In this document: positions 45,460 through 63,877 of the stretch, in pieces
Numbering within the stretch: position 1 is the stretch's first letter
Layout: each line of letters starts with the position of its first letter
IMG/VR virus record: IMGVR_UViG_3300020079_000009
Length of the DNA: 64,000 nucleotides
Strand: one strand, 5' to 3'
DNA from: a virus
Made by a program: the position numbers and the translations under genes
Notes under the pieces: generated by a model
What the model was told of the DNA's origin: nothing
Databases searched by the model: none
Seen by the model: the letters and a program-made list of their open reading frames with translations, nothing else

Positions 45460-45747
45460 ATGTTTGATGGAAAATTTGGCGTTGACCCGCCTTGGTATAG
45501 AGAAAGCCCAATAGAAAGAGAAGCATTCAACCTTTATGCGATGGAGTGTGAGGGAATGCTTCCTACTCGACAGGGTAAAATCAATCAAGTTATCAATCTG
45601 ATGGTTGCGGCCGGGCCTATGTGTAACGACTTCGCCACTCAGTGTGATATATACGATGAGGTCGGCATCGATAGTGATACTTTTACCGACCAAGAGGTAC
45701 AATATATAGAAAGCGAGGTTGCAAAGCGACTTGTATACGGCTATTGA
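45460..45747 (+). CDS. hypothetical protein (95 aa)
   Basis: RBS GTAAGGAGG. Confidence 0.4.
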   Translation: MFDGKFGVDPPWYRESPIEREAFNLYAMECEGMLPTRQGKINQVINLMVAAGPMCNDFATQCDIYDEVGIDSDTFTDQEVQYIESEVAKRLVYGY

Positions 45748-49279: not shown

Positions 49280-49343
49280 GATTGGCGATTTGAGGGGACA
49301 GGGAAACCTGTTCCCTCTTTTTTAATTGAATAAGGAGGTTATT

Positions 49344-50750
49344 ATGTCTGGTAAAAAGATGTTTGCATTTTGGCTTGGGTGCATATGCATGTTCTTTACG
49401 ACATTGTTCCCAAGTTTGGACATTGCGTTCGCTGGGTTAAGTGGCGATGCAATTACAATGATTGGCATATTCATTGGTGCTATCATTATGTGGCTTTTTG
49501 TGGATGTAGGCTGGCCGAGCTTACTGGTGCTATTTTCATTGACGCAGTTGACTGATGTGACCATATCGATAGTAATGGCGAATTCATTGGGTAATAATAC
49601 TATTGCCTTCCTCATTTTCAGTTGCGCGCTGACATATGCGCTCTCCACGACTGGACTTTTGAGACGAATCGCATTATGGTTTGTTAATACACCAATAGCA
49701 AAGAAATCCCAATGGGCATTTGCGGCAATGTATTTCGTATCCATTTTGGTAATCGGAAGCTTCATTTCCCCGACCGTTTTATTCGTTTTATTCTTTGCTT
49801 TGGCGAAGGAAATTTACGACATTAATGGATTCCAAAAGGGCAACGCATATGCAAAGATGTTAATGATTGGTACGGCTATTATGACTTCAATATCTTGCGC
49901 GATGACTCCTATTGCTCACACCTTCCCGCTCATGGCGATTGGCTTTTATGAATCTGCGACTGAGGAAGTTATTAACTGGATTGATTATATGCTGATTGGT
50001 ATTCCAGCTGGATTGTGTGCGGCGGGGGCAACCTTTGGCGCTTTATGGTTAGGTTTTAGGAAACAAGTGGCTCATGTTCAAGTCGCTGCTTCTGAAAATA
50101 CGACTAAGATTACTCGAAAAGAGATTGTTGCTTTAATTGTTTTCTTGGTTGTTGTGGCAATGTGGATGGTCTCTGGTTTATTCCCAGATTGGCTTCCAAT
50201 ATTAAAAACTTGGACCACAACTGTTCCTCCTATGCTGGGCGTCATTGTTCTTTGTTTGTTTGGCATTTTGAAATTCAATGATGCAATGAAGAATGGCGTG
50301 CCTTGGACAGCAATTATTTTGTGTGCATCAACTCTTGCAGTTGGTAAATGGTTAACTTCTGCGGACCTCGGCATTACCGCGGCGATTGGCGAGGGTCTTG
50401 GAGCAATTATTGGTCAACCTTCAATGTTAGGTTTGATTTTTGCAATAGTATGCTTCACTGTAGTAATGACTAATTTAATGTCAAATATTGTTACGACTAC
50501 CGTTTCATATAATTTACTGACACCAATAGTAATTGCAACTGGAGTTATTTCGCCTGTTTTGTCTACTATCTTGATTGGTATGTGCGCATCAATGGCTTAT
50601 GCAACTCCACCAGCTATCGCTCATGTAGCACTTGCGGCAGGGTCTGAATATTGTGATTCCAAAGATATGTTGATATATGGTGGTATTGCAACGGTTATTT
50701 CGATTGTATTCGTTGTAGGTTTTGGATTCATATTTGGAGGTATTATATGA
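49344..50750 (+). CDS. polytopic membrane transporter (ArsB/NhaD/DASS anion-permease superfamily-like)
   Basis: RBS AAGGAGG before ATG 49344; ~12 predicted TM segments; hairpin-tip-like motifs ANSLGNNT and LMSNIVTT. Confidence 0.5.
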   Translation: MSGKKMFAFWLGCICMFFTTLFPSLDIAFAGLSGDAITMIGIFIGAIIMWLFVDVGWPSLLVLFSLTQLTDVTISIVMANSLGNNTIAFLIFSCALTYALSTTGLLRRIALWFVNTPIAKKSQWAFAAMYFVSILVIGSFISPTVLFVLFFALAKEIYDINGFQKGNAYAKMLMIGTAIMTSISCAMTPIAHTFPLMAIGFYESATEEVINWIDYMLIGIPAGLCAAGATFGALWLGFRKQVAHVQVAASENTTKITRKEIVALIVFLVVVAMWMVSGLFPDWLPILKTWTTTVPPMLGVIVLCLFGILKFNDAMKNGVPWTAIILCASTLAVGKWLTSADLGITAAIGEGLGAIIGQPSMLGLIFAIVCFTVVMTNLMSNIVTTTVSYNLLTPIVIATGVISPVLSTILIGMCASMAYATPPAIAHVALAAGSEYCDSKDMLIYGGIATVISIVFVVGFGFIFGGII

Positions 50751-51010
50751 TGAAACCAGAAGATGAAGCTATGTTGGACACTTTACGAATGACAATTCAG
50801 TTAATTGATACTGATATTTTGCATTTATTGGAGGAGCGCATCGACGCTGTAAAGCAAGTTGGTGCAATTAAAGAATTATATAATGCTCCTATTTATGTCC
50901 CAGAAGTAGAGAAAAGAAAAATTGAAGCTTTGGCTGCGGCCTGTAAGTATCCCGGTCTGGTCGAAACAATTTGGCCGGTAATTATGTGTTACGCTCGTAG
51001 CGTTGAATAA
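50747..51010 (+). CDS. chorismate mutase (AroQ class)
   Basis: LRMTIQLIDTDILHLLEERIDAVKQVGAIK..PIYVPEVEKRKIEAL matches the AroQ helix-1/2 consensus (R..ID..D..LL.LL.ER...VG..K...P..D..RE). Start overlaps the transporter stop. Terminator 51016-51045. Confidence 0.6.
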   Translation: MMKPEDEAMLDTLRMTIQLIDTDILHLLEERIDAVKQVGAIKELYNAPIYVPEVEKRKIEALAAACKYPGLVETIWPVIMCYARSVE

Positions 51011-51177: not shown

Positions 51178-51954
51178 ATGAAATATTGCTTAAATTGCAG
51201 ACAAGAAAAAGCATATCTCCAAAAGGCAGATGAAATTAAAGTTGAATTTAGAGATAGAAAGATTATTCCGGATTTAATTGATAATTATCCAGACGCAACA
51301 ATTATTTTAATGTGTTACTCTGGAGAAGAGATTAACTGGAATGATTGCGTTCGTTGGAATGTTTTAGCTAAAGGTAATTTTATTATGTGTTTATCTTCTT
51401 TTGAAGATGCTAAAGTATGTAAAGAAAAAGAATTAAAGTTTTATATTGGTTATCCAATTAAAACTTTTTATGAATTGAACGCTTTAAGAGATTTGGGCGT
51501 TTGTTATGTGCGCCTGGCCGAACCTTTATTCTTCCAAATGGATGAAGTTAAGTTGTTTAATATTCCTGTTAGAGCAATTCCAAACATTGCATTTACAGAT
51601 ACCTTTCCTCATCCCGATGGGGTTTGCGGCACATGGATTCGTCCGGAAGATGTAGATACATATGCTCCATATGTTGAAACAATTGAGTTTGAGGATTGTG
51701 ATAATCGCAAAGAACAAGCTCTATATAGATTATACGCAGAACAAAAGAGCTGGCCCGGAGATTTATCAATGGTTATTACAAACTTAGAATATCCAGCTGT
51801 GAATCGTATGATTCTTCCAGATATGGCAAGAAGTCGTTTAAATTGCGGCCAGAAGTGTCAAATGAATAGGCATTGTAAGATATGTTATCGTGCTTTTGAT
51901 TTGGCTGACCCGGAAAAAATTAGAGACTATATGGAAGCTACCGACCAATCTTGA
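51178..51954 (+). CDS. hypothetical Cys-containing protein (258 aa)
   Basis: Promoter at 51118-51150 (TTGACT-17-TGGTACAAT), RBS AAGGAGGAG. Confidence 0.45.
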   Translation: MKYCLNCRQEKAYLQKADEIKVEFRDRKIIPDLIDNYPDATIILMCYSGEEINWNDCVRWNVLAKGNFIMCLSSFEDAKVCKEKELKFYIGYPIKTFYELNALRDLGVCYVRLAEPLFFQMDEVKLFNIPVRAIPNIAFTDTFPHPDGVCGTWIRPEDVDTYAPYVETIEFEDCDNRKEQALYRLYAEQKSWPGDLSMVITNLEYPAVNRMILPDMARSRLNCGQKCQMNRHCKICYRAFDLADPEKIRDYMEATDQS

Positions 51955-52017
51955 TTTTTTATTAAATTTTTGATATAATATATATATAAGAATATGAAGA
52001 GAGGTAGGTTGTTGTGA

Positions 52018-53073
52018 ATGAGAATTTTACGAGAAAATGAATTGAAGACTTTTGAACAAATCGTATCTTTAAAGCAACCGGCTTTGAAAAAGGTAATGTC
52101 CAATTTCCTCAGAAAGAAGTATAGCAAGGTTATTGAAACCAAGGATTATATTGTTGCGGTTGGTGAGATTCCGATTGCTTTGACGGCGCATATGGATACT
52201 GTCTTTGACAAGCCAGTTTCTGAAATGTTTTATGATACTCGCAAGAATGTAATTTGGAGTCCTGAAGGATTGGGTGCAGATGATAGAGCTGGTGTGTATG
52301 CAATTATTCAGATTCTGCGTGCAGGTTACCGTCCTCATGTAATCCTTACCACCGATGAAGAAAAAGGTTGTTTGGGTGCTGGAGAACTTGCAAAATTAAG
52401 CTGTCCTTTTGAGGATTTGAAGTATGTTATTGAACTGGATAGACGTGGTACAAATGACTGTGTATTCTATGATTGTGAGAACCCTCAGTTTGTTGATTAT
52501 GTTGAGCAGTTCGGCTTTACTGAGGCCTATGGTAGCTTTTCTGACATCTGTGAGTTTTGTCCTGAATGGGGAGTTGCTGGTGTAAATCTGTCTATTGGAT
52601 ACCGTGATGAACACAGTCATCAAGAACTTTTGTTTGTAAGCCCTATGTTCGCAACAATCGAAAAAGTTAAAAAGATGTTGGACGAGGAAGAAATTCCTTT
52701 CTTCAAGTATATTCCCAGTCCCTACGCTTGGAATTGGAAAAACTGGAAGAAAGATGGGTGGGAAGAAAACTACTACTCTAAAGCGTATGGGTACGGTTGT
52801 TACTCCTATCCATATGATGATGAAGTCGTTTGTACGAAGTGTCATAAGACCTTCCTCGAAGAAGAAGTATTTCCAGTTAAACTCTTAGATGGTAAGACAG
52901 GCTGGTATTGTCCTGACTGTTTAGTTGATAATGTATCTTGGTGTAAATATTGTCAAGAGCCATTTGAGGTTGAACCTGGTACTGATATTAGTCTTGTGGA
53001 TGTTTGCCCCGACTGCGCAAAGAATCCAAAGCCTAAGTCCGATAAAAAGAAAAAAGGCAAGGGGAATAAATAA
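52018..53073 (+). CDS. M28/M42-family-like zinc aminopeptidase with C-terminal Cys-rich zinc ribbon
   Basis: Metal-ligand motifs AHMDTV, GADDRAGV, TTDEEKGCLGA; C-terminal CTKCH...CPDC...CKYC...CPDC. Confidence 0.55.
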   Translation: MRILRENELKTFEQIVSLKQPALKKVMSNFLRKKYSKVIETKDYIVAVGEIPIALTAHMDTVFDKPVSEMFYDTRKNVIWSPEGLGADDRAGVYAIIQILRAGYRPHVILTTDEEKGCLGAGELAKLSCPFEDLKYVIELDRRGTNDCVFYDCENPQFVDYVEQFGFTEAYGSFSDICEFCPEWGVAGVNLSIGYRDEHSHQELLFVSPMFATIEKVKKMLDEEEIPFFKYIPSPYAWNWKNWKKDGWEENYYSKAYGYGCYSYPYDDEVVCTKCHKTFLEEEVFPVKLLDGKTGWYCPDCLVDNVSWCKYCQEPFEVEPGTDISLVDVCPDCAKNPKPKSDKKKKGKGNK

Positions 53074-53075
53074 AC

Positions 53076-54488
53076 ATGGTTAATATTAAAGAAATCCAAG
53101 AGCAATTTAATAAAGTTATTTCACATTCTCAGGGCATTAATGAACCCCAAACTGACGAGCTTTTTAGCAGATGGCTTGAGGCTAAGAGAGACATTATTGA
53201 AGCGATGGATGGGCGTCTTATTTATACCATTCCACAAAAAGTCAGTTTTGAACTGAGCTATAAAGAGAAAATGAATCGAGTTAATGAGTTTATCGAGTCT
53301 GTTTCTATGACTTGGAGAAACAATGATTTGGCTTGTTTCATTGATGAAAATAAAGACGGTTTTTTCAGTAATGTTGTCGTTGAGAGTTTTACTGCGCCAA
53401 GGGGTGAAAAGATTCCGAAGGGCATGAAGCTCGTTAAGGCTTTTAAGTTCTTTGAAGATGACAAGATTACTTTGGAAGAAATTCAGAATCGTGCAAGTAT
53501 GATTATCCAAGAGGATAAGGTAGAAGGCTGGTTGTGTTTTTCAGTTCATCCTTTGGACTTTTTAAGTACGAGTGAAAACACATACAACTGGCGCTCTTGT
53601 CATGCGCTTGATGGCGAATATCGTTGCGGCAATTTATCTTATATGATGGATAAGTCTACTGTTATTTGTTACTTAAAGAGTGACAAAGACGATAACCATT
53701 TGCCGAATTTCCCAAGTGATGTTCCTTGGAACTCTAAGAAATGGAGAATGTTATTGTTCCTTAGCGATGCTTGGAATGCAATGTTTGCGGGCAGGCAATA
53801 TCCATTCTTTAGTGAAACTGCTTTAGAATCAGTATTGTATCACTCTATGAATGTGTTTAAGTTCCACGGACAGTGGAGTAAGTGGCATAATGATGAATTG
53901 CGCAACTTCAATTTTGCTGGAGATGAGGAACATGAAGATGAGATGTACTTCAGGAGTCCATATCTTCCAATTCGAGGGAGATTGTATCCTAAAGAAGAGC
54001 TGATTGAAGACTGTGAAAATCCGATGCACTTCAATGATTTGTTGAGAAGTTCTTGTTATATTCCATATTACTGTTGGAATAAATCATATTTCAGTGGTCA
54101 TAAAGAGATTCACTTTTTGATTGGTGGCGAAATTCCTTGTTTGCGCTGCGGCGAATATCCGGTCGCTCAGACAGATGATATGCTTTGTCGAGATTGCGAA
54201 CTCGAGTATGGGAGTTCTGAAGATGAAGCCTACATCACCTGCTCTTGTTGTGGACGAAGAATTTTATATGATGATTCTTGGTACGTCGAATCTTCAGGAG
54301 AAAATGTTTGTGAAGAATGTGCCAATAGAGAATGTAGAACCTGTGATAATTGCGGAGAACTTTATTGGAATAGCGATATAGTGTATGACAAGAAAAATCA
54401 TGACTATCGTTGTGAGCATTGTCACTCTGATAATGACGATAGACAAGAAAGGATGCAAGAGTTTTTTAGCTCATTGCTACCGTTCTAA
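53076..54488 (+). CDS. large Cys-rich protein, paralog X2 of 47166..48767
   Basis: See X1; coupled to the peptidase gene (stop/start 3 nt apart). Confidence 0.5.
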   Translation: MVNIKEIQEQFNKVISHSQGINEPQTDELFSRWLEAKRDIIEAMDGRLIYTIPQKVSFELSYKEKMNRVNEFIESVSMTWRNNDLACFIDENKDGFFSNVVVESFTAPRGEKIPKGMKLVKAFKFFEDDKITLEEIQNRASMIIQEDKVEGWLCFSVHPLDFLSTSENTYNWRSCHALDGEYRCGNLSYMMDKSTVICYLKSDKDDNHLPNFPSDVPWNSKKWRMLLFLSDAWNAMFAGRQYPFFSETALESVLYHSMNVFKFHGQWSKWHNDELRNFNFAGDEEHEDEMYFRSPYLPIRGRLYPKEELIEDCENPMHFNDLLRSSCYIPYYCWNKSYFSGHKEIHFLIGGEIPCLRCGEYPVAQTDDMLCRDCELEYGSSEDEAYITCSCCGRRILYDDSWYVESSGENVCEECANRECRTCDNCGELYWNSDIVYDKKNHDYRCEHCHSDNDDRQERMQEFFSSLLPF

Positions 54489-54655
54489 ATATGGGTATGA
54501 AATATATAATTGACGGCTTCAATTATCCTTATAGAGGAATTGAAGCGCAACGTCAAACTTCATATTGGTTGATTGCGGCGTTCTGGTTTGCCGTTTACTC
54601 AGTCAAGTTTGATGGTGTTAATATAATCAAGAGAAAGTAAAAGGAGAAAGAGCAT

Positions 54656-54976
54656 ATGGCAAAGGGTGCAGAAGCAAAGGCTAATGTAGTCAAGAAAATC
54701 CAAGCTGCTTTTGGAGCAGATTTTGTTGGTGAATATGATAAGAAAGTGTATGTGTGGGCACAAGAGAACGGCGAGAAAATTCAGATTGCTATTTCTATGA
54801 CCTGTCCTAAAAATCCAGTAGGTGCAGTTAATCCTGCAGCTTTAGATTTCGGTGGCGACCTTGATTTTGAAAATATGGGTGCGCCGGTTGTTGCACAGAC
54901 CTCTTTCGAGCCAGCTGAAATTTCCGATGAAGAAAAGCAGACTGTTGCAGATTTAATGGCGAGACTTGGTCTATAA
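54656..54976 (+). CDS. hypothetical protein (106 aa)
   Basis: RBS AAAAGGAGAAAGAG. Confidence 0.4.
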   Translation: MAKGAEAKANVVKKIQAAFGADFVGEYDKKVYVWAQENGEKIQIAISMTCPKNPVGAVNPAALDFGGDLDFENMGAPVVAQTSFEPAEISDEEKQTVADLMARLGL

Positions 54977-55155
54977 TTGAAATTTGGACGAAAGATAAGA
55001 GGTGTGTGAAGGGATTCACATACCTCTTTAATAGTTTTGGTTAGAAGTTAACAATTTATCTATAATGAATTTTATAGTATACAGGAGACAATTCAGCTTT
55101 GTCTTGACTTAACATAAAATTTATGTTATAATATAATTAAAAAGGAAGGAGTTTT

Positions 55156-56961
55156 ATGATGTCAGAGAATCTATTATCGAATAAATATAAAGACCGTAGT
55201 CCGATGGATACAGTCAATTTAATTAAATCATTTTTCGAGAATAGTGGATTTAAAATCGGACATACAATGTTCCAGACTGAAATTGGGACTTGGACTTGCC
55301 ATGTAACTATTTCTTCCAATAACTTAGAGGTTCTTGGTAGTAATGGCAAGGGTATGACTCAAGAATTCGCTTTGGCCAGCGGCTACAGTGAAATGTTCGA
55401 GCGTTTTTCCAATAAAGTAGGATATATTAACAATCCTTACTTCCAAAGAAAAATTAGAGCCTTGAGAGAAGACTATGTATATTGTCCAGAAGAAAAGAAG
55501 ATTGATGCTTATGATATGGTTATTGAGAATCATATTTTAGACCAATATTATAGAACATTCTTGAAATCTGATGAAAATATGAAGAAGTTCTTTGAAATCA
55601 ATTATCCTGATGGCGCAATCGGCGTTCCTTTTACAAGCGTTTCTGACCCCACAAAGGTTAAGTATTTAGACCCAAGTATTATGCAGCGTGCTACTGGTAG
55701 TAATGGTATGGCGGCTGGTAATACAGAAGAAGAAGCTTTGAATCAAGGTTTGTCCGAGCTTTTTGAGCGCAAGGGAACTGTATTATTTTATAGTCAGCCA
55801 CAAGAGCATTATCGTGCGGTTGACCTTGAAACAATTACAAGAGAAGATTTTAGAGAAGCAGTAAGTAATATCGTTAATCGAGAGTTTGATTTTATTGTTA
55901 TGGATTTATCCCATAATTTTGGCATGCCAGTATTAGCTGGTTTGTTAATTGATAAAATTGGTTGTAATTGCCGTGTAAACTTCAGTGCCTTTCCAGTTTT
56001 TGATATCGCATTTGAAAGAATTTTAACTGAGTTATATCAAGGTATTGATAATATGAGAATGTATTGCTCTGGTTTTGAAGTTCCTGCAAAAACAAATAAA
56101 GCATCTTTTGTTTTGAATTTCTATGGAAACAATTATTCTCAAGCTAATTATATTCATGATGAATTTATTACTGAAAAAGTAGAGTATGTTCCTTATGATG
56201 TTTTGGCATATGAAAGTAAAGTGTTCGTAAATCCTGATAGTACAAATGTGAATTTATTGGATTACTATAAAAAGCTCTCCAAAGATTTGGGTTATGAATT
56301 CTTTTATTATAATTGCAGTCCTATCCCAAATGAGATGGCAGCTGTTTATATTTTAGGACCAGATTTTTGTTCTATTGAACAAATTCGTGAAAAGAATGCT
56401 CGTTTCATTAGTCCTATTATTGTTCAAGCATTGCTTATAATGTTTGAAAGAATGCAAAATTTAACCTCTTTAATTTGTGACTTAACTGACCATATTGGTG
56501 ACCAAGAGTATTATGATAAGCTTTATAATGAGTATAACTTATTTAGAAACTTATCTGCTAATACAAATGATTATGAACATTTTGGCGATTTATTATTGTC
56601 AACTTATGATAGCTGTCTGTTTAATGGAGAAGGTATTTCACCAATGTTCTCTGTTGAGCAAATGTTAAATAATGGAAATAATGGTCAAATTCCAACTGTT
56701 AATCCAAAGAGTTATCTTTATGGCATCCAGAAATTATATGCTTCTATTATGGTATATAAGTGTAATGGATACAGCAATAAAGAGATTAAAGATATTTTCA
56801 AAACTTTGTTTGGTACAGAATTAACTTATCCTCAAATTGAAGATGTACCTAATATGGACATTGCATTGATGGATTGTTATTTCTATCCAACTTCTGCCTT
56901 TTACAATAGTGATATTTACGATAATATTGTAAAAGCATATTTTAGCGTAAAGGAGGAGTAA
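55156..56961 (+). CDS. YcaO-domain protein (azoline-forming cyclodehydratase / thioamidation family)
   Basis: Signature GSNGKGMTQEFALASGYSEMFERFSN matches the YcaO ATP-binding motif (GKG...A..SA..E..ER). Size 601 aa. Promoter TTGACT-18-TATAAT at 55105-55134. Confidence 0.75.
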   Translation: MMSENLLSNKYKDRSPMDTVNLIKSFFENSGFKIGHTMFQTEIGTWTCHVTISSNNLEVLGSNGKGMTQEFALASGYSEMFERFSNKVGYINNPYFQRKIRALREDYVYCPEEKKIDAYDMVIENHILDQYYRTFLKSDENMKKFFEINYPDGAIGVPFTSVSDPTKVKYLDPSIMQRATGSNGMAAGNTEEEALNQGLSELFERKGTVLFYSQPQEHYRAVDLETITREDFREAVSNIVNREFDFIVMDLSHNFGMPVLAGLLIDKIGCNCRVNFSAFPVFDIAFERILTELYQGIDNMRMYCSGFEVPAKTNKASFVLNFYGNNYSQANYIHDEFITEKVEYVPYDVLAYESKVFVNPDSTNVNLLDYYKKLSKDLGYEFFYYNCSPIPNEMAAVYILGPDFCSIEQIREKNARFISPIIVQALLIMFERMQNLTSLICDLTDHIGDQEYYDKLYNEYNLFRNLSANTNDYEHFGDLLLSTYDSCLFNGEGISPMFSVEQMLNNGNNGQIPTVNPKSYLYGIQKLYASIMVYKCNGYSNKEIKDIFKTLFGTELTYPQIEDVPNMDIALMDCYFYPTSAFYNSDIYDNIVKAYFSVKEE

Positions 56962-56965
56962 CAGT

Positions 56966-57970
56966 ATGCCTACAGTAAGTCGCGGCGATAGACTATTATA
57001 CAGCGCGCAAATTAAAAATTGGTATGATAGACTTAATTCTGTAATTACGAAATATGGCGGAGGTATGGCTACGATTGCTGTTCCTTCTGCTACTCCCGCA
57101 AAAGCCTCCGATGTAAATAATCTTGTGGCTAAATTAAATGCCATGAAAGCAGATAGTTACCTGGGTTCAAATGCAAACTTATACCCAACATATTCTACTG
57201 TTGGAATAGGTACAATCATTTATGCGAATACGGGTAACCAGTTAGAAGCAGTTATTGCTAAACTGGAAACTATTAAGTGTCGTAACTCTTATACTCACAG
57301 TAACCAGAATCATTCTAATGGAACAAACAGCCAAACTTGTTCTAATAGTGCTCATAGCAATAATAACTCTAACACATCAAACAGTAATACTTGTTCCAAT
57401 AGTACAAATAGTAACACTTGTACAAACGGCTCTAATAGCAACACTTGTTCCAATGGTAGCCATAGTAACACCTGTTCTAATGGTACTCATGGAAATACAA
57501 ATAGCCACGGCTATAATAGCAATACCAATAGCAATAGTTCTCATGGTCAATCTTGTTCTAATGGTAGCAACTCCTACGGTGCACGTGGCAATGGATTGAA
57601 GCATCATAGTAGTAGATTCTATACTGACCAATGTTCTTATCAGTATAAATCTAATGGTACTTGTGGAACTAATGGTAGTCACAGTAATACTTGTTCAAAC
57701 GGAACCAATGGTAATACCAATAGTAATGGATATAACAGTAATACTTGTTCTAACAGTGCTCATAGCCAGGGTTGTTCTAATAGTGCGCACAGCCAGAGCA
57801 GAAGCCATAGTACACATGGTCAGACTTGTTCTAATAGTGCTCACAGCCAAACAAATTCCAATGTCACTAACTCACAGACCTGTTCAAACAGTGCTCATAG
57901 TAACACTAATTCTCACCAGGCTAAATCTAATGTAACGGTTATTGATATTATGAATAGTTATAAACCATAA
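56966..57970 (+). CDS. candidate RiPP precursor: ~115-aa leader-like N-terminal region followed by a Cys/Ser/Thr/Asn/His-rich repetitive core (~20 Cys)
   Basis: Core is imperfect 9-10-aa repeats (SNTCSNGSH / CSNSAHSQT ...) encoded by nucleotide tandem repeats 57290-57900. Lies immediately between the YcaO and two rSAM/SPASM genes, coupled (5-nt gap). Confidence 0.5.
   Translation: MPTVSRGDRLLYSAQIKNWYDRLNSVITKYGGGMATIAVPSATPAKASDVNNLVAKLNAMKADSYLGSNANLYPTYSTVGIGTIIYANTGNQLEAVIAKLETIKCRNSYTHSNQNHSNGTNSQTCSNSAHSNNNSNTSNSNTCSNSTNSNTCTNGSNSNTCSNGSHSNTCSNGTHGNTNSHGYNSNTNSNSSHGQSCSNGSNSYGARGNGLKHHSSRFYTDQCSYQYKSNGTCGTNGSHSNTCSNGTNGNTNSNGYNSNTCSNSAHSQGCSNSAHSQSRSHSTHGQTCSNSAHSQTNSNVTNSQTCSNSAHSNTNSHQAKSNVTVIDIMNSYKP
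57290..57900 (+). repeat. imperfect tandem nucleotide repeats (~27-30 nt units, e.g. TGTTC(T/C)AATAGTGCTCATAGCCA) encoding the precursor core
   Basis: Repeats of aatagtgctcatagc / aacacttgttccaatgg visible by eye; spurious ORFs on other frames (57255..57599, 57377..57682, 57654..57935). Confidence 0.6.
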
Positions 57971-57985
57971 GGAGAGTTTTGACAT

Positions 57986-59362
57986 ATGAAATGCGGATTA
58001 AATTGTATGAATAAAGAGCGCAGTGTCGCGGTGTTTTACACCTGCGGCACCTGCAATCTAAAATGTAGATATTGTAACATCGATAAGAATCCTGTGTTAG
58101 CTAAGATTGATGAAAAGTTAGCAGAGAGTTTTGAAGGCGATTACTATTTTAACCAAATGAAAGAGTGGTTTCCAAATATTGACCAGCTTCGTAAGATTGA
58201 AACTTGGGGTGGAGAGCCATTTTTGCATATGGAAAGAATTTATAATTTGATTACTCAAGTTATTGAATATTATCCATATTTCGACCAGTTCTTCTCTTCT
58301 ACAAACTTCTCATATCCAGAGTGGACAAATAAAGTATTTGGTTTAACTGACCAGTTTGCCAAGTACCCAGAAAGAACTTTTAGATTCACTTTACAGCTTT
58401 CTATGGACGGTCCTGAGTATATCAATGACCCAAATAGAGGTAAGGGCGTAACCAAGAGATGTATTGAAAATTTCAATAAGTTAATGGATATGATTCCTGA
58501 AAGACTTCCAAATAATGTTGTTTTAGAAATCGTATTCAAGCAGACTTTGGATACTTATTCAGTAAGAGAACTTTGCGATAAGCAAAAGATTATTGAGTAT
58601 TTCCAATTTTTTGAGAATTTTTATTTGAGAATCAATGAGTTAAATCTGCCAAATGTATTGATGTCTTGTACAGTACCTAACACTGCCGTACCTGCGCCAG
58701 TCACTAAGAAAGATGGCGAAATCTTTGCTGAGTTCTGTCGTCTTTGCAATGAAATTGAAGTTGAGAATTATAGAAACCATTACTTTAGATACTATGAAAG
58801 TATCATGCCTTATTTTGGCGAACCAATGCCTTTAAATGCAACATATGAACACTGTTCTACTTTGTGCGGCAGTGGGTCTATTATGGTTTGTTTATTGCCA
58901 GATAATCTGGTATCTACTTGCCATGAAGGATTTACTTCATTATATGAAGACTATAAGAAGTTTGCACAATCTTCTGGACGTGTTGAAGATGGTACTATTA
59001 ACTTTAACCAGTGGGTAAATGAAGATGGTCCTGTATATGTGTTGGATGCAGAAGGTTATAAAGAGCATGAGAGATTTATGGGTTATTATAACCATCCATG
59101 GTCAACTGCGCGAATGGTTAACACGACCGCTTTGATTCGTACTCTCGCTCTTGCAGATGAGATTGAAAGAAAATACTTGAATGAAGATGAAGCGTTGCGT
59201 GCTGCGCATTTTATGGCAGGTCATTCTTCTTATTGTATCAAGGATAATTATAATGTAACAGGTTCTCATAGCTTGACACCTGTTGGTTTGTTTAAGTTAT
59301 TATTAAACGGAGCGAAAGCTTATATTGAAGAAGGAGAAAGGAGAGTAAGATCGAATGGATAA
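57986..59362 (+). CDS. radical SAM enzyme with C-terminal SPASM/twitch-like Cys cluster
   Basis: CGTCNLKCRYC (Cx3Cx2C), GGEPFL SAM-binding motif, C-terminal CSTLCGSGS...C..C cluster. Confidence 0.8.
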   Translation: MKCGLNCMNKERSVAVFYTCGTCNLKCRYCNIDKNPVLAKIDEKLAESFEGDYYFNQMKEWFPNIDQLRKIETWGGEPFLHMERIYNLITQVIEYYPYFDQFFSSTNFSYPEWTNKVFGLTDQFAKYPERTFRFTLQLSMDGPEYINDPNRGKGVTKRCIENFNKLMDMIPERLPNNVVLEIVFKQTLDTYSVRELCDKQKIIEYFQFFENFYLRINELNLPNVLMSCTVPNTAVPAPVTKKDGEIFAEFCRLCNEIEVENYRNHYFRYYESIMPYFGEPMPLNATYEHCSTLCGSGSIMVCLLPDNLVSTCHEGFTSLYEDYKKFAQSSGRVEDGTINFNQWVNEDGPVYVLDAEGYKEHERFMGYYNHPWSTARMVNTTALIRTLALADEIERKYLNEDEALRAAHFMAGHSSYCIKDNYNVTGSHSLTPVGLFKLLLNGAKAYIEEGERRVRSNG

Positions 59363-60806
59363 TGTGATTGTAAATATTCATGACGACAAGGAATTATTCC
59401 AGCAAGAACAAGATAAATTATTGCAAGTTGTATTAGATAAACGATTCTTCTCTACTTGGAGACCAAATAATAGTGCGATGGATGTACCTCGTGGGCATGT
59501 GGAGTTATTTATTACTTCTCAGTGTAACCAAAAGTGTGAGTATTGTTATTTGGTTAAATATCCTGACCTTTATCCAAAGGAATTTTTAAACCCAGAGCAA
59601 ATCAAAGAAAACCTTAAAATTTTTTATGACTGGGTTATTGCAAATAATTATTGTATTCCTCAGATTGAGTTTTATACTGGCGAAATCTGGCATAGTAAAT
59701 TTGGAACTGATATCTTAGATATTACTTTTGATTATCTTTTAGCTGGATTGCAAGTGCGCCAGTTCATGATTCCTTCTAACTGCAGTTTTCTTAAAGACCG
59801 TAAGAGAGCTGCAATTATTCAAGGATATATTGACAAGTTTAGAGCTATTGGTGTTCCACTTATTTTCTCTATCTCTATTGATGGAAAGTATGTAGATAAT
59901 GATATTCGCCCTAATGTCAATGCGAAAATTACTCATGATGATGACTTTTATGATATGGCGTTTTCATTTTCTAAGCACAATGGATTTGGCTTCCATCCGA
60001 TGATTGCGGCAGCCTCTATTGAAATGTGGCCAGAGAATTATAAGTGGTGGAAAGAAATGCTAAAGAAATATGGCTTGACTCTTGGAGAAGTTATGATGCT
60101 TGAAGTAAGAAATGGAGACTGGACTCCAGAGAAAATTCAAGCGTTCTTAGATTTTGAGGATATTTTAATTGATGGTCTTTTAGAGCGTAATGATAATGAC
60201 CCAATTAAAGCTTGTATTTTCGGTTTTGGTATTAACCAAACTTATTATGATAAGAATTTGTTAGCTATCGAAGACGAAGAAATGAGTGCATATACGCCTT
60301 ATCATTTAGCAGAAACTGATGAATTTCTTGGATGTACGTTACAAAATACTTTAACAGTTCGTTTAGGTGATTTAGCAATTTGCCCTTGCCATAGAACTGC
60401 TTATAATAAAAATCTATATGGTTGGTTTACTGTTGAAAATGGGGCAATTACAGGTATTAAATCTAATAATCCTCATCAGGCTATTAGAAATCTAATGGTA
60501 AATAACCATGTGGGAACTTTAGGTTGCGACTCTTGTTTCTATAATAGATATTGTATGGGTGGATGCCCTGGTCAACAAATGGAAAAATTTAATGACCCAT
60601 ATCATTTAGACCCTACGGTTTGCAACTTCTTAAAGAGTAAGATTAAGCATTTGATTAAACGTTACCATGATTTAGGATTTTTGGATTGGTTAAAAGAAAA
60701 CATTTCTCCTTACCATGTATTTTATCCAAATGCGCAGAATCTTATTCGTTTATATGAAAATGTAATGGAGGAGGAGCGTCATGAGCGAATGGCAGAATTT
60801 AGATAA
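59355..60806 (+). CDS. radical SAM/SPASM-domain enzyme (second)
   Basis: SQCNQKCEYC (Cx3Cx2C); C-terminal SPASM-like CPCHRT...GCDSCFYNRYCMGGCPG. Overlaps the rSAM1 stop by 8 nt. Confidence 0.8.
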   Translation: MDNVIVNIHDDKELFQQEQDKLLQVVLDKRFFSTWRPNNSAMDVPRGHVELFITSQCNQKCEYCYLVKYPDLYPKEFLNPEQIKENLKIFYDWVIANNYCIPQIEFYTGEIWHSKFGTDILDITFDYLLAGLQVRQFMIPSNCSFLKDRKRAAIIQGYIDKFRAIGVPLIFSISIDGKYVDNDIRPNVNAKITHDDDFYDMAFSFSKHNGFGFHPMIAAASIEMWPENYKWWKEMLKKYGLTLGEVMMLEVRNGDWTPEKIQAFLDFEDILIDGLLERNDNDPIKACIFGFGINQTYYDKNLLAIEDEEMSAYTPYHLAETDEFLGCTLQNTLTVRLGDLAICPCHRTAYNKNLYGWFTVENGAITGIKSNNPHQAIRNLMVNNHVGTLGCDSCFYNRYCMGGCPGQQMEKFNDPYHLDPTVCNFLKSKIKHLIKRYHDLGFLDWLKENISPYHVFYPNAQNLIRLYENVMEEERHERMAEFR

Positions 60807-61176
60807 AATTTTTGTTGACGATGCCTATGGCATTGGTAATGCTGATGAAAATTTTACTATTATCACAAAAGAATGGCTTGCTAATGGTGGAAAGATTGAT
60901 TCTTTCACTCAAGAAATTATTAAGCCAGTAGACAATATCGCTGTTATGGCAGAAGATATGGAAGGTACAACTCCTCTTCTTTGGAAAGAAAGATTGATTT
61001 TCTATTCCGATGGCAGAATGGAAAGATACTTCTTGTATAATAGATATCCTTCTGATATAATTCGCACAAGGGTTAATAGCCGTCCAGCTTTAACCCCTTG
61101 GGCACAAACCATTATGCAAGAGGCAATTTATGAAGAGAGATGTCGAGTTGAAGATTTGCAAAACGAAGATTGGTAA
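60781..61176 (+). CDS. hypothetical protein (131 aa) downstream of and overlapping rSAM2
   Basis: Start overlaps the rSAM2 stop by 26 nt. Confidence 0.4.
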   Translation: MSEWQNLDKIFVDDAYGIGNADENFTIITKEWLANGGKIDSFTQEIIKPVDNIAVMAEDMEGTTPLLWKERLIFYSDGRMERYFLYNRYPSDIIRTRVNSRPALTPWAQTIMQEAIYEERCRVEDLQNEDW

Positions 61177-61236
61177 ATTGATTTTTAATTAAAAATATGG
61201 TATAATTATAGTAATAAGAGAAAAAGGAGATTTTTT

Positions 61237-62187
61237 ATGGCGAACTTTTATTGTCCAGGCTTTTATGAAAATGCCGTTATGTATAAAAGACTCTTATGGT
61301 TCCAAAAGTATTATCCACAGTGTTGGGTAGATGGCGCAAAAATTACTCATATTTTTGGTTGTTTCCCTAACTGTATTTGGAATGGAGGGTCTACTTGGAT
61401 TCAATATCCGCCCGCAAAACCTATCATGAGAAATGTATTCCAGTGGTATAAAGACCAAGGTATTATTATTCAGTTAACTTTTACTAATCCTATGTTACAG
61501 GAAACTGATGTATACGACAGATATGCTAATTGCATTTTAGATGTTGCGGTTGAGATTTTAGGATATGAGCAATTAGAAGTATTAGTTTCTGCTCAGTGTC
61601 TTGAGGATTATATTCGCAATAAATATCCAAAAGCCAATGTAACAAGAAGTATTGTTGGTGCAACTGGCTGCGAAAACACTTGTAGCACAATTGAAGATTA
61701 TGTCGCGCTATTGGATAAATATCCTCGTATTGTTGTACCTCGTAAAAAGGTTAATGATATTGATTTTATTCAAGGCTTTCCTCAGGAATTAAAGCATCGA
61801 GTAGAGTTACTTTGTACAGATGCCTGTCCCATTGATTGCCCTCGAATTTATCAGCATTATACTAAATTAGGTATGGAACAGTTATGGGAAGATGTTTCTT
61901 TTGAAGAAGTAATTTGCACGGGTTTTGCAAAAGATAATCCTTTCCATGAAGCAACTTATTCTCAATATAAGATTACTCCACCTGAAATTGCGGCATATGA
62001 AGCTCTTGGATGGTCAGAGTTCAAAATTAGCGGTCGTATTTCTACTGCGGCAGCTCCTTTGAGATTGGTACCATATTTAATTAAGCCAGAATTTTGGGAA
62101 GATGTTTATATCAACATTTATTTCGATATTTTTGGTGATAATAGCTATTTCCCAGACTATGATTTCTGGTCAGATTCAACTATTTAA
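61237..62187 (+). CDS. hypothetical Cys-containing protein (316 aa)
   Basis: Class-2-like promoter at 61171-61204, RBS AAAGGAGA. Confidence 0.45.
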   Translation: MANFYCPGFYENAVMYKRLLWFQKYYPQCWVDGAKITHIFGCFPNCIWNGGSTWIQYPPAKPIMRNVFQWYKDQGIIIQLTFTNPMLQETDVYDRYANCILDVAVEILGYEQLEVLVSAQCLEDYIRNKYPKANVTRSIVGATGCENTCSTIEDYVALLDKYPRIVVPRKKVNDIDFIQGFPQELKHRVELLCTDACPIDCPRIYQHYTKLGMEQLWEDVSFEEVICTGFAKDNPFHEATYSQYKITPPEIAAYEALGWSEFKISGRISTAAAPLRLVPYLIKPEFWEDVYINIYFDIFGDNSYFPDYDFWSDSTI

Positions 62188-62280
62188 TCTTAATTGATTT
62201 TTATAAAAAATAATGTTATAATATATATGTAAAGATGATAAAAGAATATAAGGCACATACAGCAAAATGCTTAAAAAGCT

Positions 62281-62352
62281 AATGCAATAGTCAAACGGTT
62301 AAGACATTACCCTTCCACGGTGAAAGTTGGGGTTCGATTCCCCATTGCGATT
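62281..62352 (+). tRNA. tRNA-Gly(UCC) (no encoded CCA; one A-A mismatch in acceptor stem)
   Basis: Manual fold: acceptor AATGCAA/TTGCGAT, U8A9, D-loop with GG, anticodon stem TTACC/GGTGA, loop CTTCCAC (U33, UCC, A37), T-arm TGGGG-TTCGATT-CCCCA. Flanked by complementary AAGGCAC (62251) and GTGCCTT (62358). Driven by class-2 promoter at 62196-62226. Confidence 0.55.
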
Positions 62353-62628
62353 CAGAGGTGCCTTGGAAATAAAAATTCTTTTTGATTTTTTATAAAAAAT
62401 ATGTTATAATATATATGTAAGATAAAGAAAGCCCTTTAATCTTAGTCGTAAAGGAAAGACGCGAGTCCGGCCATCGTATTCACTGTGAGTTCCTCTCGTA
62501 AGAGGGTTGACGGTAGTAGTGCCCAGCGCAACTGGTGAGTAAACAGGTCCGAGGGTATGAATAGGTGTCACGACCACCTAACTTTCTTTGTCTGATATAT
62601 GTATTATATAGGAAAGGAGAAATTATCA

Positions 62629-63801: not shown

Positions 63802-63877
63802 TGCCCTGTAGCTCAGTCGGTAGAGCACGCGGCTGTTAACCGCGCTGTCGTGGGTTCGAGCCCCACCGGGGCAGCCA
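63802..63877 (+). tRNA. tRNA-Asn(GUU) with encoded CCA
   Basis: TGCCCTG-TA-GCTC-AGTCGGTA-GAGC-A-CGCGG-CTGTTAA-CCGCG-CTGTC-GTGGG-TTCGAGC-CCCAC-CGGGGCA-G-CCA; canonical cloverleaf. Class-2 promoter at 63672-63704. Confidence 0.85.

Follow-up and report, generated by a model that had tools for sequence, protein, structure and literature searches.

Gene content and boundaries of the module

The window analyzed here, a stretch of 64,000 nucleotides, is phage DNA, with a portal gene (phrog_2739, 5.5e-81) as well as terminase-like and sigma-factor genes, and its source is a large uncultivated gut phage. Every open reading frame of a preliminary description was recovered at the same coordinates, and its central observation was upheld, namely that a phage carries a YcaO protein and two radical-SAM (rSAM) enzymes next to a repetitive protein that looks like a substrate. 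The unit was redefined by comparing the window with 87 related loci (Table 1). In the window it is an operon of five genes, YcaO, repeat protein, rSAM-1, rSAM-2 and p131 (55156-61176), to which p316 may belong as a sixth, accessory gene.

Table 1. Features of the module and its surroundings in the window
Feature	Coordinates	Strand	Remarks
Terminator-like hairpin, 14-bp stem	54997..55028	+	Ends peptidase / Cys-rich / 106-aa gene block
Promoter-like site, TTGACT-17-TATAAT	55104..55132	+	11/12, extended -10; best of the region
YcaO-domain protein, 601 aa	55156..56961	+	Pfam PF02624 E=1.7e-30; accessory, non-core
Repeat protein, N-terminal domain (aa 1-107)	56966..57286	+	Three-helix unit (AF2)
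Repeat protein, tail (aa 108-334)	57287..57970	+	N/S/G/T/H/C-rich degenerate 9-aa repeats, central aromatic linker
27-nt tandem array, first 9-aa repeat block	57378..57486	+	Tandem Repeats Finder: 4 copies, 73% matches
27-nt tandem array, second 9-aa repeat block	57745..57849	+	Tandem Repeats Finder: 3.9 copies, 62%
C-terminal motif T-V-I-D-I-M-N	57935..57955	+	Family consensus x-(I/V)-(D/E)-(I/V)-x-(N/C)
rSAM-1, 458 aa	57986..59362	+	CX3CX2C at C23/C27/C30
rSAM-2, 483 aa	59355..60806	+	CX3CX2C at C57/C61/C64, plus 7-Cys SPASM
p131, small conserved partner, 131 aa	60781..61176	+	Overlaps rSAM-2 stop by 26 nt
p316	61237..62187	+	Possible accessory gene

The invariant core of the module is the repeat protein with rSAM-1 and rSAM-2. 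Among the first 23 loci (the window and L001-L022), both enzymes were found in 23/23 and all three genes in each of the 22 not cut by a contig end. With a metagenome scan included, the repeat gene lies directly 5' of rSAM-1 in the window and 52 loci, 36 of them non-redundant. The gap between these two genes is a few nucleotides, and genes further downstream overlap. Up to three paralogues of the repeat protein accompany one enzyme pair (L024/L045), and one phage has two modules (L012 and L019). The link between precursor and enzymes is strongly backed by this synteny. The carriers form a clade of uncultivated phages with large genomes (about 130-220 kb), probably infecting Firmicutes of the gut; they encode a sigma factor, gyrase and ligase of their own and, being so large and so equipped, look virulent.

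The M28-like peptidase (Pfam 25 bits, cutoff 21.3) and the 470-aa Cys-rich protein with a paralogue at 47166-48767 were correctly recognized at the outset, and both lie outside the module. The peptidase had been placed in the same transcription unit, which is apparently not the case, since the hairpin and the promoter-like site intervene before YcaO. The hairpin would mark the 5' boundary of the module, and the promoter-like site stands 24 nt upstream of the YcaO start; both calls are consensus matches only, and promoter-like sites in the region are in total no more frequent than the shuffled expectation. The peptidase and the Cys-rich protein co-occur with the module only in the window and its closest relatives, L004 and L005 (in L005 the repeat gene is about 4.7 kb away), and the peptidase family is present in 377 deposited phages, none of which has these rSAMs. 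A role of the two proteins as module members, or of the M28 protein as leader peptidase, finds no support on these grounds, the three loci, the intervening signals and the 377 rSAM-less phages.

At the 3' end, the protein that usually follows rSAM-2 has about 100–130 residues. The p131 family is found directly after rSAM-2 in 16/23 loci; p131 has no Pfam or PDB match and no detectable RRE/PqqD similarity. A GT2 glycosyltransferase (neighbor family f4, Pfam PF00535 about 1e-18) follows the small protein in about half of the scorable loci and occurs in 14/23 loci; the window has none. The p316 family, which has a weak, sub-threshold likeness to Peptidase_U32, flanks the module in 7/23 loci, and in the window p316 is preceded by a promoter-like site at 61178-61206.

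The repeat protein

The repeat protein (334 aa, 56966-57970) starts 4 nt past the YcaO stop. Its N-domain is predicted with an AF2 pLDDT of 80-95 across residues ~9-108, and the fold has no match in PDB or BFVD. Residues Y20, D63, C105 and N107 are invariant, and the domain ends in a near-invariant junction, Cys105-Arg-Asn107; C[RK]N is present in 105/121 family members (87%). The family comprises 289 representative clusters, and in nearly all matches listed the N-domain is N-terminal. We propose that it is a recognition ("leader-like") domain.

The tail, proposed here as the site of modification, has an AF2 pLDDT of about 30 and is thus predicted to be disordered. The 9-aa repeats noted earlier beside YcaO were confirmed as two tandem arrays, and the earlier figure of about 20 Cys is corrected to 14 in the protein and 13 in the tail, mostly in (T/S/G)-C-S-N contexts. 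Tails are hypervariable (107 family members have tails of 54-300 aa, and in the loci they reach 452 aa) and are closed by a conserved IDIxN-like motif. Some are entirely without Cys and are still accompanied by both rSAMs, and loci whose tails defy alignment have rSAM enzymes 50-58% identical. With a "core" of such length, and with neither an RRE nor a transporter, an immunity gene or a dedicated protease found for the module, the earlier reading as a "complete" RiPP cluster is not borne out; TOMM C/B partners are absent, as had been stated.

The radical SAM enzymes

The two overlapping frames (8 nt), each with a CX3CX2C motif, were found as described. They score 19.9 and 21 bits against Pfam Radical_SAM, under the cutoff of 29.5, and their assignment as radical-SAM enzymes rests instead on the motif, NCBIfam matches, predicted AF2 folds and family profiles. 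The SPASM-like Cys clusters attributed to both were borne out in full for rSAM-2, in which the canonical seven (C327, 345, 391, 394, 400, 404 and 423) are invariant in the family. They were not for rSAM-1, which has four further invariant Cys (159, 294, 312 and 417) and is twitch-like, probably with one auxiliary cluster. The rSAM-1 model (pLDDT 86.7) matched anSMEcpe (1.4e-7), TigE (8.7e-5) and EpeE (1.5e-3) in Foldseek, and the rSAM-2 family profile matched CteB (7.9e-7), ChlB (3e-3) and SkfB (0.02) in the PDB. The best NCBIfam matches of both are peptide maturases, with scores far under every equivalog cutoff, and the known relatives are very remote (identity at most about 15%). The enzymes are mutually unrelated and always paired, form at least 345 clusters, all >50% identical, and have no detectable RRE.

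YcaO, an optional partner

The YcaO assignment was secured by 106.9 bits against PF02624 (cutoff 25.7). The protein is of the standalone type and, by its best NCBIfam matches (YcaO_for_S12 and TIGR00702) and PDB match (4q84, 1.4e-21), closest to E. coli YcaO. However, its score against the S12-type equivalog is 117 bits vs a cutoff of 700, and only residues 12-297 align with E. coli YcaO. In a comparison of seven phage YcaOs the ATP/Mg-binding Glu/Arg residues are invariant and a C-terminal PxPxP motif is absent.

YcaO had been described as a core component. It lies directly upstream of the module in only 7/24 scorable non-redundant loci and is missing from the closest relatives of the window; it is an optional add-on. 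Its presence is associated with tail Cys content (Mann-Whitney p=0.016, a statistic that ignores phylogeny): in the seven loci where YcaO is adjacent, Cys makes up 5.3% or more of the tail, and an adjacent YcaO is missing from all ten Cys-poor loci. The identities of YcaO and rSAM-1 are correlated (rho 0.59, p=0.005). The association with tail Cys is one-directional, since L024/L045, L023 and L042 have Cys-rich tails without any YcaO and L013/L048 has a Cys-poor tail with a YcaO 4 kb off. It points to a probable Cys-directed chemistry.

Genomic setting and expression

The window itself uses the standard code. In TAG-recoded relatives the repeat gene has 14.9 in-frame TAG per 1000 codons, a load like that of lysis and tail genes (endolysin 16.1 per 1000 codons; gyrA/gyrB 0). 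In a published model, recoded stops are tied to lysis and structural genes (PMC10879173). The pattern in these relatives suggests that the repeat protein is expressed late.

Relation to known systems

The closest systems are the ranthipeptides and sactipeptides (CteB/thermocellin, PapB/freyrasin, SkfB, SCIFF), in which a SPASM rSAM likewise stands beside a Cys-containing precursor with short-period repeats. The rSAM-2 profile matches CteB and SkfB, and the NCBIfam matches include models of PapB, SCIFF, CcpM and CXXX-repeat maturases. However, the phage enzymes score 10-20 times under the equivalog cutoffs, have no N-terminal RRE and always come as an unrelated pair; the substrate is 200-560 aa long with a folded N-domain, some tails are Cys-free, and the module is phage-borne. 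Proteusins (polytheonamide/landornamide), with long NHLP/Nif11 leaders and rSAM epimerases, share a long structured leader-like N-domain and a core rich in Asn/Ser/Thr/Gly that rSAMs alter at numerous positions, as we propose here, and the epimerase EpeE is among the structural neighbors of rSAM-1. However, the repeat protein has no NHLP/Nif11 similarity (no NCBIfam match at E<=0.1, Pfam matches at chance level only), its N-domain fold is without known relative, the rSAMs are of SPASM/twitch type, GT2 and YcaO are partners, and the core exceeds that of proteusins 2-10 times in length.

TigE and TvgB are cyclopropylglycine synthases acting on TIGSVS/TVGG repeats, and they offer a likeness in a SPASM-type rSAM working iteratively on a motif repeated within one precursor. 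Among fold matches to rSAM-1 the TigE structure (8vpo) ranks second, but with only 13% identity and a different partner set, and the phage repeats are an (S/T)-(N/H)-G pentad and T-C-S-N units with almost no Val/Ile. YcaOs acting on proteins are known from E. coli YcaO-RimO, on ribosomal protein S12, and from the thioglycine YcaO of McrA. These are a precedent for joint action of YcaO and rSAM enzymes on a full-length protein, and the E. coli protein, named a RimO accessory factor, is the nearest relative of the phage YcaO in sequence and solved structure. The phage protein is nevertheless no orthologue by score and alignment, and the module has no TfuA and would target a phage repeat protein. 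The sublancin/glycocin cluster of prophage SPbeta is also phage-borne, with a ribosomally made, post-translationally modified product and a GT2-family glycosyltransferase acting on a Cys/Ser substrate; in relatives, GT2 often belongs to the present module too. However, the window has no GT2, disulfide, transporter or immunity genes are not found here, rSAM and YcaO are not in the sublancin cluster, the substrate here is much larger, and the carriers are large and apparently virulent.

Proposed mechanism and alternatives

We favor, with modest confidence, a five-gene RiPP-like module that modifies the repeat protein. The folded ~107-aa N-domain with its C(R/K)N junction would be a constant handle read by the enzymes, and the disordered, hypervariable N/S/G/T(/C/H) tail the part modified. 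Judging from enzyme relatives that are all very remote, we infer that twitch-type rSAM-1 and SPASM-type rSAM-2 may abstract hydrogen atoms from tail residues, giving cross-links or stereochemical or oxidative changes. In Cys-bearing tails, Cys-to-carbon thioethers would be the most likely chemistry; given the tails without Cys, thioether formation cannot be the universal reaction, and because these tails keep both enzymes some Cys-independent rSAM reaction would have to exist too. In lineages with GT2, that enzyme would then glycosylate the tail. In Cys-bearing lineages, the window included, the ATP-dependent YcaO may add a backbone modification at or next to Cys, most likely thiazoline, or it may aid the rSAM step as E. 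coli YcaO aids RimO.

The product could instead be a virion structural or decoration protein, a fibre, whisker or coat part cross-linked and decorated by the rSAMs (and GT2 and YcaO where present). The enzymology would be that of the module we favor, and the fate and role of the product would differ: modification would help the protein survive gut proteases or bind mucus or host surfaces, and the N-domain would be an attachment or oligomerization domain and no leader. The repeat gene shares its TAG signature with structural and lysis genes, which argues for this, as do the position of the module directly after tape-measure and virion structural genes in L018 and after large tail-fibre-like proteins and a holin in L003, L010 and L011, and the adhesin-like SpaA/pAdhesive proteins downstream of it in L003, L012 and L019. 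The degree of enzyme conservation suits core genes better than accessory ones, and a variable middle flanked by conserved N- and C-terminal anchors is reminiscent of fibre proteins. However, the head/packaging genes of the window are on the opposite strand and no less than 35 kb away from the module, in L001 and L014 the module has lysis or PhoH genes on one side and gyrase genes on the other, the repeat protein has no PHROG structural-protein match, its N-domain is unlike known virion proteins in fold, and AF2 shows no ordered fibre. We regard a purely virion role as possible but rather unlikely.

A classical small antimicrobial RiPP, with the M28 protein removing the leader and a multi-core tail cut into killing azoline/thioether peptides, would fit the canonical layout of YcaO and rSAM/SPASM genes adjoining a Cys/Ser/Thr-rich gene and the several precursor paralogues of L024; phage-borne bacteriocin clusters such as that of sublancin are known (10.1101/2020.10.01.322628). 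It is nonetheless improbable: the peptidase is not co-conserved, is apparently on a separate transcript and is common in rSAM-less phages, no locus has a transporter or immunity gene, and the long tails have no recurring inter-repeat cleavage motif. The conserved C-terminal motif and the junction Cys point to a single intact product, and the carriers look virulent, whereas most phage BGCs known so far belong to temperate phages. The alternative raised in the preliminary description, a modified structural or surface protein, fits the evidence better than a small peptide. More improbable still is that the rSAMs and YcaO act elsewhere, with DNA or RNA bases, some cofactor or a host protein (ribosomal S12, for example) as their target, next to a repeat protein that could be, for example, an intrinsically disordered host-takeover protein. 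Phage rSAMs are known from nucleotide pathways, the YcaO is closest to the S12/RimO accessory type, the RRE search was negative, and conservation is far higher in the rSAMs than in the tails. Against this stand the invariant order of overlapping or near-abutting genes in dozens of divergent loci, the several repeat-protein paralogues around one enzyme pair, the YcaO score far under the S12-type cutoff and its presence tracking tail Cys. The nearest relatives of both rSAMs, moreover, are peptide- or protein-modifying SPASM/twitch enzymes and not nucleotide enzymes.

In summary, this gene set, so far undescribed, is found again in dozens of related phages; it is a RiPP-like protein-modification module of phages that lies outside every known RiPP class. 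As judged from sequence, it resembles a peptide natural-product cluster, yet its target is most likely a whole protein. We infer that late synthesis would yield a heavily modified, probably protease-resistant protein which, because it is made late, would be released at lysis or attached to the virion.

Composition of the module across related loci

All open reading frames of the preliminary description were found where it had placed them. The window is phage DNA, as its portal protein (phrog_2739, 5.5e-81), its phage sigma factor and its terminase-like protein show. The portal shares 38% identity with its counterpart in the TAG-recoded gut phage Phass-1 and 30% with those of ~140-kb Enterococcus phages. 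The module was absent from 50,697 deposited phage records, both by megablast of the region and by tblastn with its two radical-SAM enzymes, rSAM-1 and rSAM-2, and in the literature and annotation sources we found no description of it beyond an automatic 'AslB-like' label.

The contigs carrying homologues of the repeat protein, the proposed substrate, were inspected for gene context. Because rSAM-1 is 50–58% identical across distant loci, it served as the query for related loci, and 15 viral, 3 MAG and 61 metagenome loci were fetched with it. TAG is a sense codon in many of these relatives, and all loci were therefore re-annotated under both codes. The ORFs of the first 23 loci (the window and L001–L022, our handles for related loci) were then clustered into families.

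Features of the window and occurrence of the gene families in the first 23 loci
Feature	Position	Loci (of 23)	Remarks
404-aa protein	45719-46933
Cys-rich protein, 533 aa	47166-48767		phrog_18912
Anion transporter, 474 aa, and chorismate mutase	within 49326-51010		chorismate mutase directly after transporter, 4-nt overlap
TTGATT-17 nt-TATAAT	51951-51979		5' of peptidase gene
Block of M28 peptidase, Cys-rich 470-aa, 106-aa and 258-aa proteins		3	window, L004, L005
Cys-rich protein, 470 aa	53076-54488		phrog_18912
Terminator-like hairpin	54997-55028		14-bp stem; between 106-aa gene and YcaO
Best promoter-like site in region	55104-55132		between 106-aa gene and YcaO
YcaO, 601 aa	55156-56961	7	PF02624, E=1.7e-30
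Repeat protein, 334 aa	56966-57970	22	starts 4 nt after YcaO; missing in L020, cut at contig end
27-nt tandem arrays	57378-57486 and 57745-57849		in repeat gene
rSAM-1	57986-59362	23	overlaps rSAM-2 by 8 nt
rSAM-2	59355-60806	23	overlapped 26 nt at end by p131
p131, 131 aa	60781-61176	16	overlaps end of rSAM-2 by 26 nt
TTGATT-17 nt-TATAAT	61178-61206		5' of p316
p316	61237-62187	7
TTGATT-17 nt-TATAAT	62194-62222		5' of tRNA-Gly
tRNA-Gly	62281-62353
TTGATT-17 nt-TATAAT	62382-62410		3' of tRNA-Gly
cREC_REC protein, 117 aa	62599-62952		PF20274, 2.7e-18
tRNA-Asn	63802-63877
GT2 glycosyltransferase (family f4)		14

The count for the repeat protein includes a divergent 210-aa form in L014, L015 and L022. 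The repeat gene lies 5' of rSAM-1 in 52 loci (36 non-redundant), so that the proposed precursor adjoins the enzymes and is co-conserved with them, as is expected of a RiPP system. The glycosyltransferase family was recognized as GT2 by PF00535 matches at ~1e-18 in L007 and L013; the window has no GT2 gene, and that of the sister loci L004 and L005 is degenerated. An exact copy of p131, the small partner protein, occurs on 28 contigs, the longest of 220 kb. The module also occurs in multiplied forms: L012 and L019 are two paralogous modules on one 193-kb phage, with YcaO in one and not in the other; three paralogues of the repeat protein surround a single rSAM pair in L024/L045; two modules stand in tandem in L025; and a third rSAM gene lies downstream in L026. 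When clustered at 90% identity, the rSAM-1 sequences of the family form 345 clusters or more.

The radical-SAM enzymes

The CX3CX2C motif by which the two enzymes had been recognized is conserved. Across 53 sequences of rSAM-1, C27 and C30 do not vary and C23 is conserved in at least 90%; across 22 sequences of rSAM-2, C57, C61 and C64 are invariant. The Pfam search did not bear the assignment out, since PF04055 scored 19.9 and 21.0 bits against a gathering cutoff of 29.5. The radical-SAM fold of rSAM-1 is nonetheless supported by a confident AF2 model (pLDDT 86.7) and by its closest solved structures, which are anSME (1.4e-7), TigE (8.7e-5) and the peptide epimerase EpeE (1.5e-3).

C-terminal SPASM-like clusters had been proposed for both enzymes, and this holds for rSAM-2 alone. 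All seven of its SPASM cysteines are invariant (C327, C345, C391, C394, C400, C404 and C423); its segment CDSCFYNRYCMGGC fits CX2CX5CX3C, within the full pattern CX9-15GX4C...CX2CX5CX3C...C of two auxiliary clusters. The SPASM model TIGR04085 scores slightly below its cutoff (25 vs 27), and the family profile matches CteB (7.9e-7) as well as ChlB and SkfB. With only four further invariant cysteines (C159, C294, C312 and C417), rSAM-1 is twitch-like and not a full SPASM protein. The alignment of the two enzymes is confined to the CX3CX2C region, and recent paralogy was rejected.

Both enzymes fall 10–20 times below every NCBIfam equivalog cutoff. The models of sactipeptide and ranthipeptide maturases (PapB, CteB, SCIFF, AlbA, RumMC) gave at best 22–36 bits against cutoffs of 340–720, and these functions were rejected. 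Since the CX3CX2C motif begins at residue 23 in rSAM-1 and at residue 57 in rSAM-2, there is no space for an N-terminal RRE; no RRE/PqqD similarity was detected in either enzyme or in p131, which was dismissed as an RRE/PqqD protein for want of any Pfam or PDB-profile signal. From these relatives and cysteine signatures, both enzymes are placed in the peptide- or protein-modifying twitch/SPASM class, with a chemistry that is not assignable. An anti-phage defence system, including prokaryotic viperins, was also considered and rejected: PADLOC gave no full-length match, pVip was aligned at the rSAM core only (~50–60 of 257 profile positions), and the remaining six proteins had no PADLOC match.

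The YcaO protein

Membership in the YcaO superfamily, as the preliminary description had it, was confirmed by PF02624 (106.9 bits vs a cutoff of 25.7, residues 63–404) and by the domain model TIGR00702 of NCBIfam (106.8 vs 75.65). Residues E79, E82, R83, E201, E204, E287, R288 and E292 are invariant in all seven phage YcaO proteins recovered and fall inside the stretch aligned to E. coli YcaO (PDB 4q84); judged from this alignment, they appear to be the ATP/Mg2+-binding set that marks a YcaO enzyme. E. coli YcaO is the nearest relative (NF040716 is the best-scoring NCBIfam family, and 4q84 is matched at 1.4e-21, the alignment being limited to residues 12–297 in the N-terminal half), with LynD and TruD far behind.

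The specific functions known for such proteins do not fit. An equivalog of the E. coli-type S12/RimO accessory factor (NF040716) was rejected at 117.4 bits vs a cutoff of 700, a TOMM SagD-type cyclodehydratase (TIGR03604) at 34.9 vs 219.25 over residues 179–299 only, and a thioamide-forming YcaO-TfuA protein (McrA-glycine thioamidation, TIGR03266) at 42.4 vs 365. Neither an E1-like or Ocin-ThiF-like C protein nor an FMN dehydrogenase B protein was matched by Pfam or NCBIfam among the 10 ORFs of 51178-62187, in agreement with the earlier remark that TOMM partner proteins are absent, and no TfuA-like gene was found in the cluster with the same libraries. None of the seven phage proteins ends in PxPxP; that of the window ends in ...AYFSVKEE. 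The phage YcaO is of the standalone type, and no defined YcaO subfamily could be established for it.

In 24 non-redundant loci the sequence reaches far enough upstream to be scored, and in 7 of them YcaO lies directly 5' of the repeat gene. The tail of the repeat protein has at least 5.3% Cys in all seven, and the 10 loci whose tails contain less than 5% Cys all lack an adjacent YcaO (Mann-Whitney p=0.016, phylogeny being ignored). A strict equivalence of YcaO and Cys-rich tails was discarded: L024/L045, L023 and L042 are Cys-rich without YcaO, and L013/L048 have YcaO nearby and a Cys-poor tail. What survives is a one-way rule, that an adjacent YcaO goes with a tail of at least 5% Cys. Pairwise YcaO identities track those of rSAM-1 (rho 0.59, p=0.005), which means that YcaO evolved together with the module and was patchily kept, and was not acquired by a single capture. 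The pattern fits optional Cys-directed tailoring, on statistics that ignore kinship.

The repeat protein

The N-domain (residues 1–107) is followed by a tail, the final ~227 residues, of degenerate 9-aa repeats. The protein contains 14 Cys, rather than the ~20 first counted, and 13 of them are in the tail, mostly in (T/S/G)-C-S-N contexts. AF2 predicts a confident three-helix unit at residues ~9–108 (pLDDT 80–95) and a disordered tail. A Foldseek search of PDB and BFVD with the N-domain returned no relative below E=1, NCBIfam gave no match of any kind to the repeat protein at E<=0.1, NHLP/Nif11 leaders included, and its Pfam matches are at chance level only (GGDEF 0.019, zf-CCCH_UNK 0.045). 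The N-domain profile recovered 289 representative clusters at 50% identity from 1.84 billion proteins, and among the matches listed the domain is at the far N-terminus in nearly all.

Two anchor motifs are shared by the family. Y20, D63, C105 and N107 are invariant in an alignment of 15 repeat proteins, and of the 121 members that are 160 aa or longer, 87% carry the C(R/K)N junction and at least 58% a C-terminal x-(D/E)-(I/V)-x-(N/C) motif, the latter figure being a lower bound because many predictions are incomplete. Between them the tail varies from 54 to 300 aa in the 107 members analysed, and reaches 452 aa in L012. It is composed largely of N (16.7%), S (14.4%), G (12.8%) and T (12.2%), with 6.8% C; the dipeptides HG, TC, CS and NG are enriched 2–3-fold, and spacing peaks occur at 5 residues for NG-NG and at 9, 4 and 5 residues for Cys-Cys, so that the tails have a real short-period grammar. 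An enrichment of N-glycosylation sequons (N-x-S/T) in the tails was rejected, their count being equal to that in shuffled tails (5.8 vs 5.8). Tail Cys varies continuously from 0 to 17% (median 5.2%), the window being typical at 5.7%, and a few members have Cys-free tails and retain both anchor motifs.

The upstream boundary and other genes of the window

The M28 peptidase upstream of YcaO had been read as a leader peptidase, and the Cys-rich 470-aa protein as a further part of the module. Neither role holds. The peptidase block is confined to three of the 23 loci, in one of which (L005) it is ~4.7 kb from the repeat gene; a terminator-like hairpin and a promoter-like site separate it from YcaO; and members of the peptidase family are present in 377 deposited phage genomes, which lack the rSAMs. 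The peptidase and the Cys-rich protein thus adjoin the module without belonging to it. Among the 23 loci, the 470-aa protein is itself found only in the window, L004 and L005; it and its 533-aa paralogue, which is likewise outside the module, have many CxxC pairs in the C-terminal third.

Four intergenic sites share the promoter-like sequence TTGATT-17 nt-TATAAT, in which the -10 box is extended by TG; it may represent a phage-specific promoter class. The sign of the GC skew flips at ~20 kb in the window, where minus-strand structural and packaging genes give way to plus-strand genes. The 117-aa cREC_REC (cyclic-phosphate processing receiver) protein lies between two tRNA genes. The 404-aa protein has no Pfam or PHROG match; its C-terminal third is very Met-rich (PMMMFFLMNQ, LPMMMMNMQ), and its end, HECHCGHHD, looks like a metal-binding tail. 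A DASS/CitMHS-type anion transporter (PF00939 1e-15, PF03600 3e-15) and a type II chorismate mutase (PF01817 1.7e-14) form an auxiliary metabolic gene pair that is unusual for a phage.

The p316 family flanks the module in the window and in L004, L005, L006, L013, L016, L020 and L025, often as two tandem paralogues, and has C197, C201 and H207 invariant. Peptidase_U32 gave weak matches in 3 of 9 members (best 6e-4), with a faint U32 flag in L025, and p316 had no match in PDB. U32-family enzymes include prephenate-dependent anaerobic hydroxylases, and a link of p316 through prephenate to the nearby chorismate mutase would be speculative. The proposal that p316 and the 258-aa protein p258 are both U32-type enzymes tied to chorismate mutase was dropped, the U32 matches being weak and p258 unrelated to p316.

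TAG recoding and genome setting

TAG is reassigned to sense in L001–L003, L007–L013, L016, L017, L019, L021 and L022; the module of the window reads cleanly in the standard code. Among the recoded relatives, 13 of 14 repeat genes contain in-frame TAG, at 14.9 per 1000 codons. The corresponding values are 16.1 for endolysin and 11.6 for large tail-fibre-like proteins, 2.6 for rSAM-1 and 3.5 for rSAM-2, and 0 for gyrA and gyrB. Under the published model (PMC10879173, with reference to Borges et al. 2022), recoded stops are a sign of lysis and structural genes whose translation is late. The TAG-rich substrate gene and the mostly TAG-free enzyme genes suggest an order of expression in which the enzymes would come first and the substrate follow; by inference, the substrate would be late and the enzymes possibly earlier.

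In L018 the module comes immediately after genes for the tape measure and virion structure, and in L003, L010 and L011 after tail-fibre-like genes and a holin. Its neighbours in L001 are an endolysin gene on one side and gyrase genes on the other; in the window it is placed amid auxiliary and unknown genes. A ~900-aa protein is encoded a few genes 3' of the module in one clade (L003, 19969-21107; L012; L019, 14249-16993); it has a hydrophobic signal-like N-terminus, long Pro/Thr linkers and weak SpaA/pAdhesive-type matches, and its gene, unlike the neighbouring ones, is without in-frame TAG.

Discussion

The module is best read as a RiPP-like system that modifies a protein. The N-domain, with the junction, would be the constant handle by which the enzymes recognise the protein, and modification would fall on the variable tail; the two always-paired rSAMs would be the core catalysts, to which GT2 and YcaO would be lineage-specific additions, and the product would be made late in infection. 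For the tail of the window, a thioether at Cys together with a YcaO-made thiazoline would be the most economical chemistry. The family must in addition have an rSAM reaction that does not depend on Cys.

Membership in a defined RiPP class could not be established for the module. Sactipeptide and ranthipeptide systems have a short Cys-bearing precursor, whereas some of the phage substrates are without tail Cys. Proteusins carry an NHLP/Nif11 leader, to which the repeat protein has no homology, its N-domain being also without a fold match. The GT2 S/O-glycosyltransferase of the sublancin-type glycocins has a counterpart in 14 of the 23 loci but not in the window. A RiPP in the general sense has a leader that is recognised by an RRE and removed by a dedicated protease, and a small final product; here p131 and the rSAMs show no RRE/PqqD similarity and the nearby M28 peptidase is not co-conserved with the module, and the repeat protein may or may not be cleaved.

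The biosynthetic gene clusters known from phages mostly encode bacteriocins, sit on temperate phages and include genes for transport and immunity (10.1101/2020.10.01.322628). A classical bacteriocin-type RiPP is one rival reading here; the comparative genomics of the unit and of the substrate family weakens it. The possibility that the enzymes act on a target other than the repeat protein is likewise weakened, by the synteny and by the class of the enzymes. That the repeat protein may be a virion structural or decoration protein is compatible with the enzymology. A bolder proposal, to which we give well under an even chance, is a new class of viral post-translational modification, in which a late protein substrate is processed by an rSAM pair to a crosslinked, glycosylated, protease-resistant polymer that is virion-associated or co-released in the gut, with GT2 and YcaO contributing in some lineages. 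If this were true, the substrate would combine a novel folded recognition domain with a hypervariable repeat tail, the product would be a 'giant RiPP' that serves in structure or host interaction instead of as an antibiotic, and at least one rSAM reaction not yet known, independent of Cys, would act on Asn/Ser/Gly/Thr pentads.

RiPP-type enzymology (rSAM/SPASM, YcaO) is otherwise known almost wholly from bacterial small-peptide products. What sets the present case apart is that RiPP-like rSAM/YcaO tailoring is paired with substrates that are unusually protein-like, in the late-gene setting of a virus; throughout a clade of large gut phages, such enzymology seems to be a conserved trait that is expressed late and acts on a protein. 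If the assignment is right, it would mean new radical-SAM chemistry on Asn/Ser/Gly/Thr repeats and a new leader-like recognition fold; the natural series of loci with and without YcaO, with and without GT2, and from Cys-rich to Cys-free would make each enzyme's part testable, and the system would also be relevant to the ways in which extracellular products of gut phages are stabilised or decorated.
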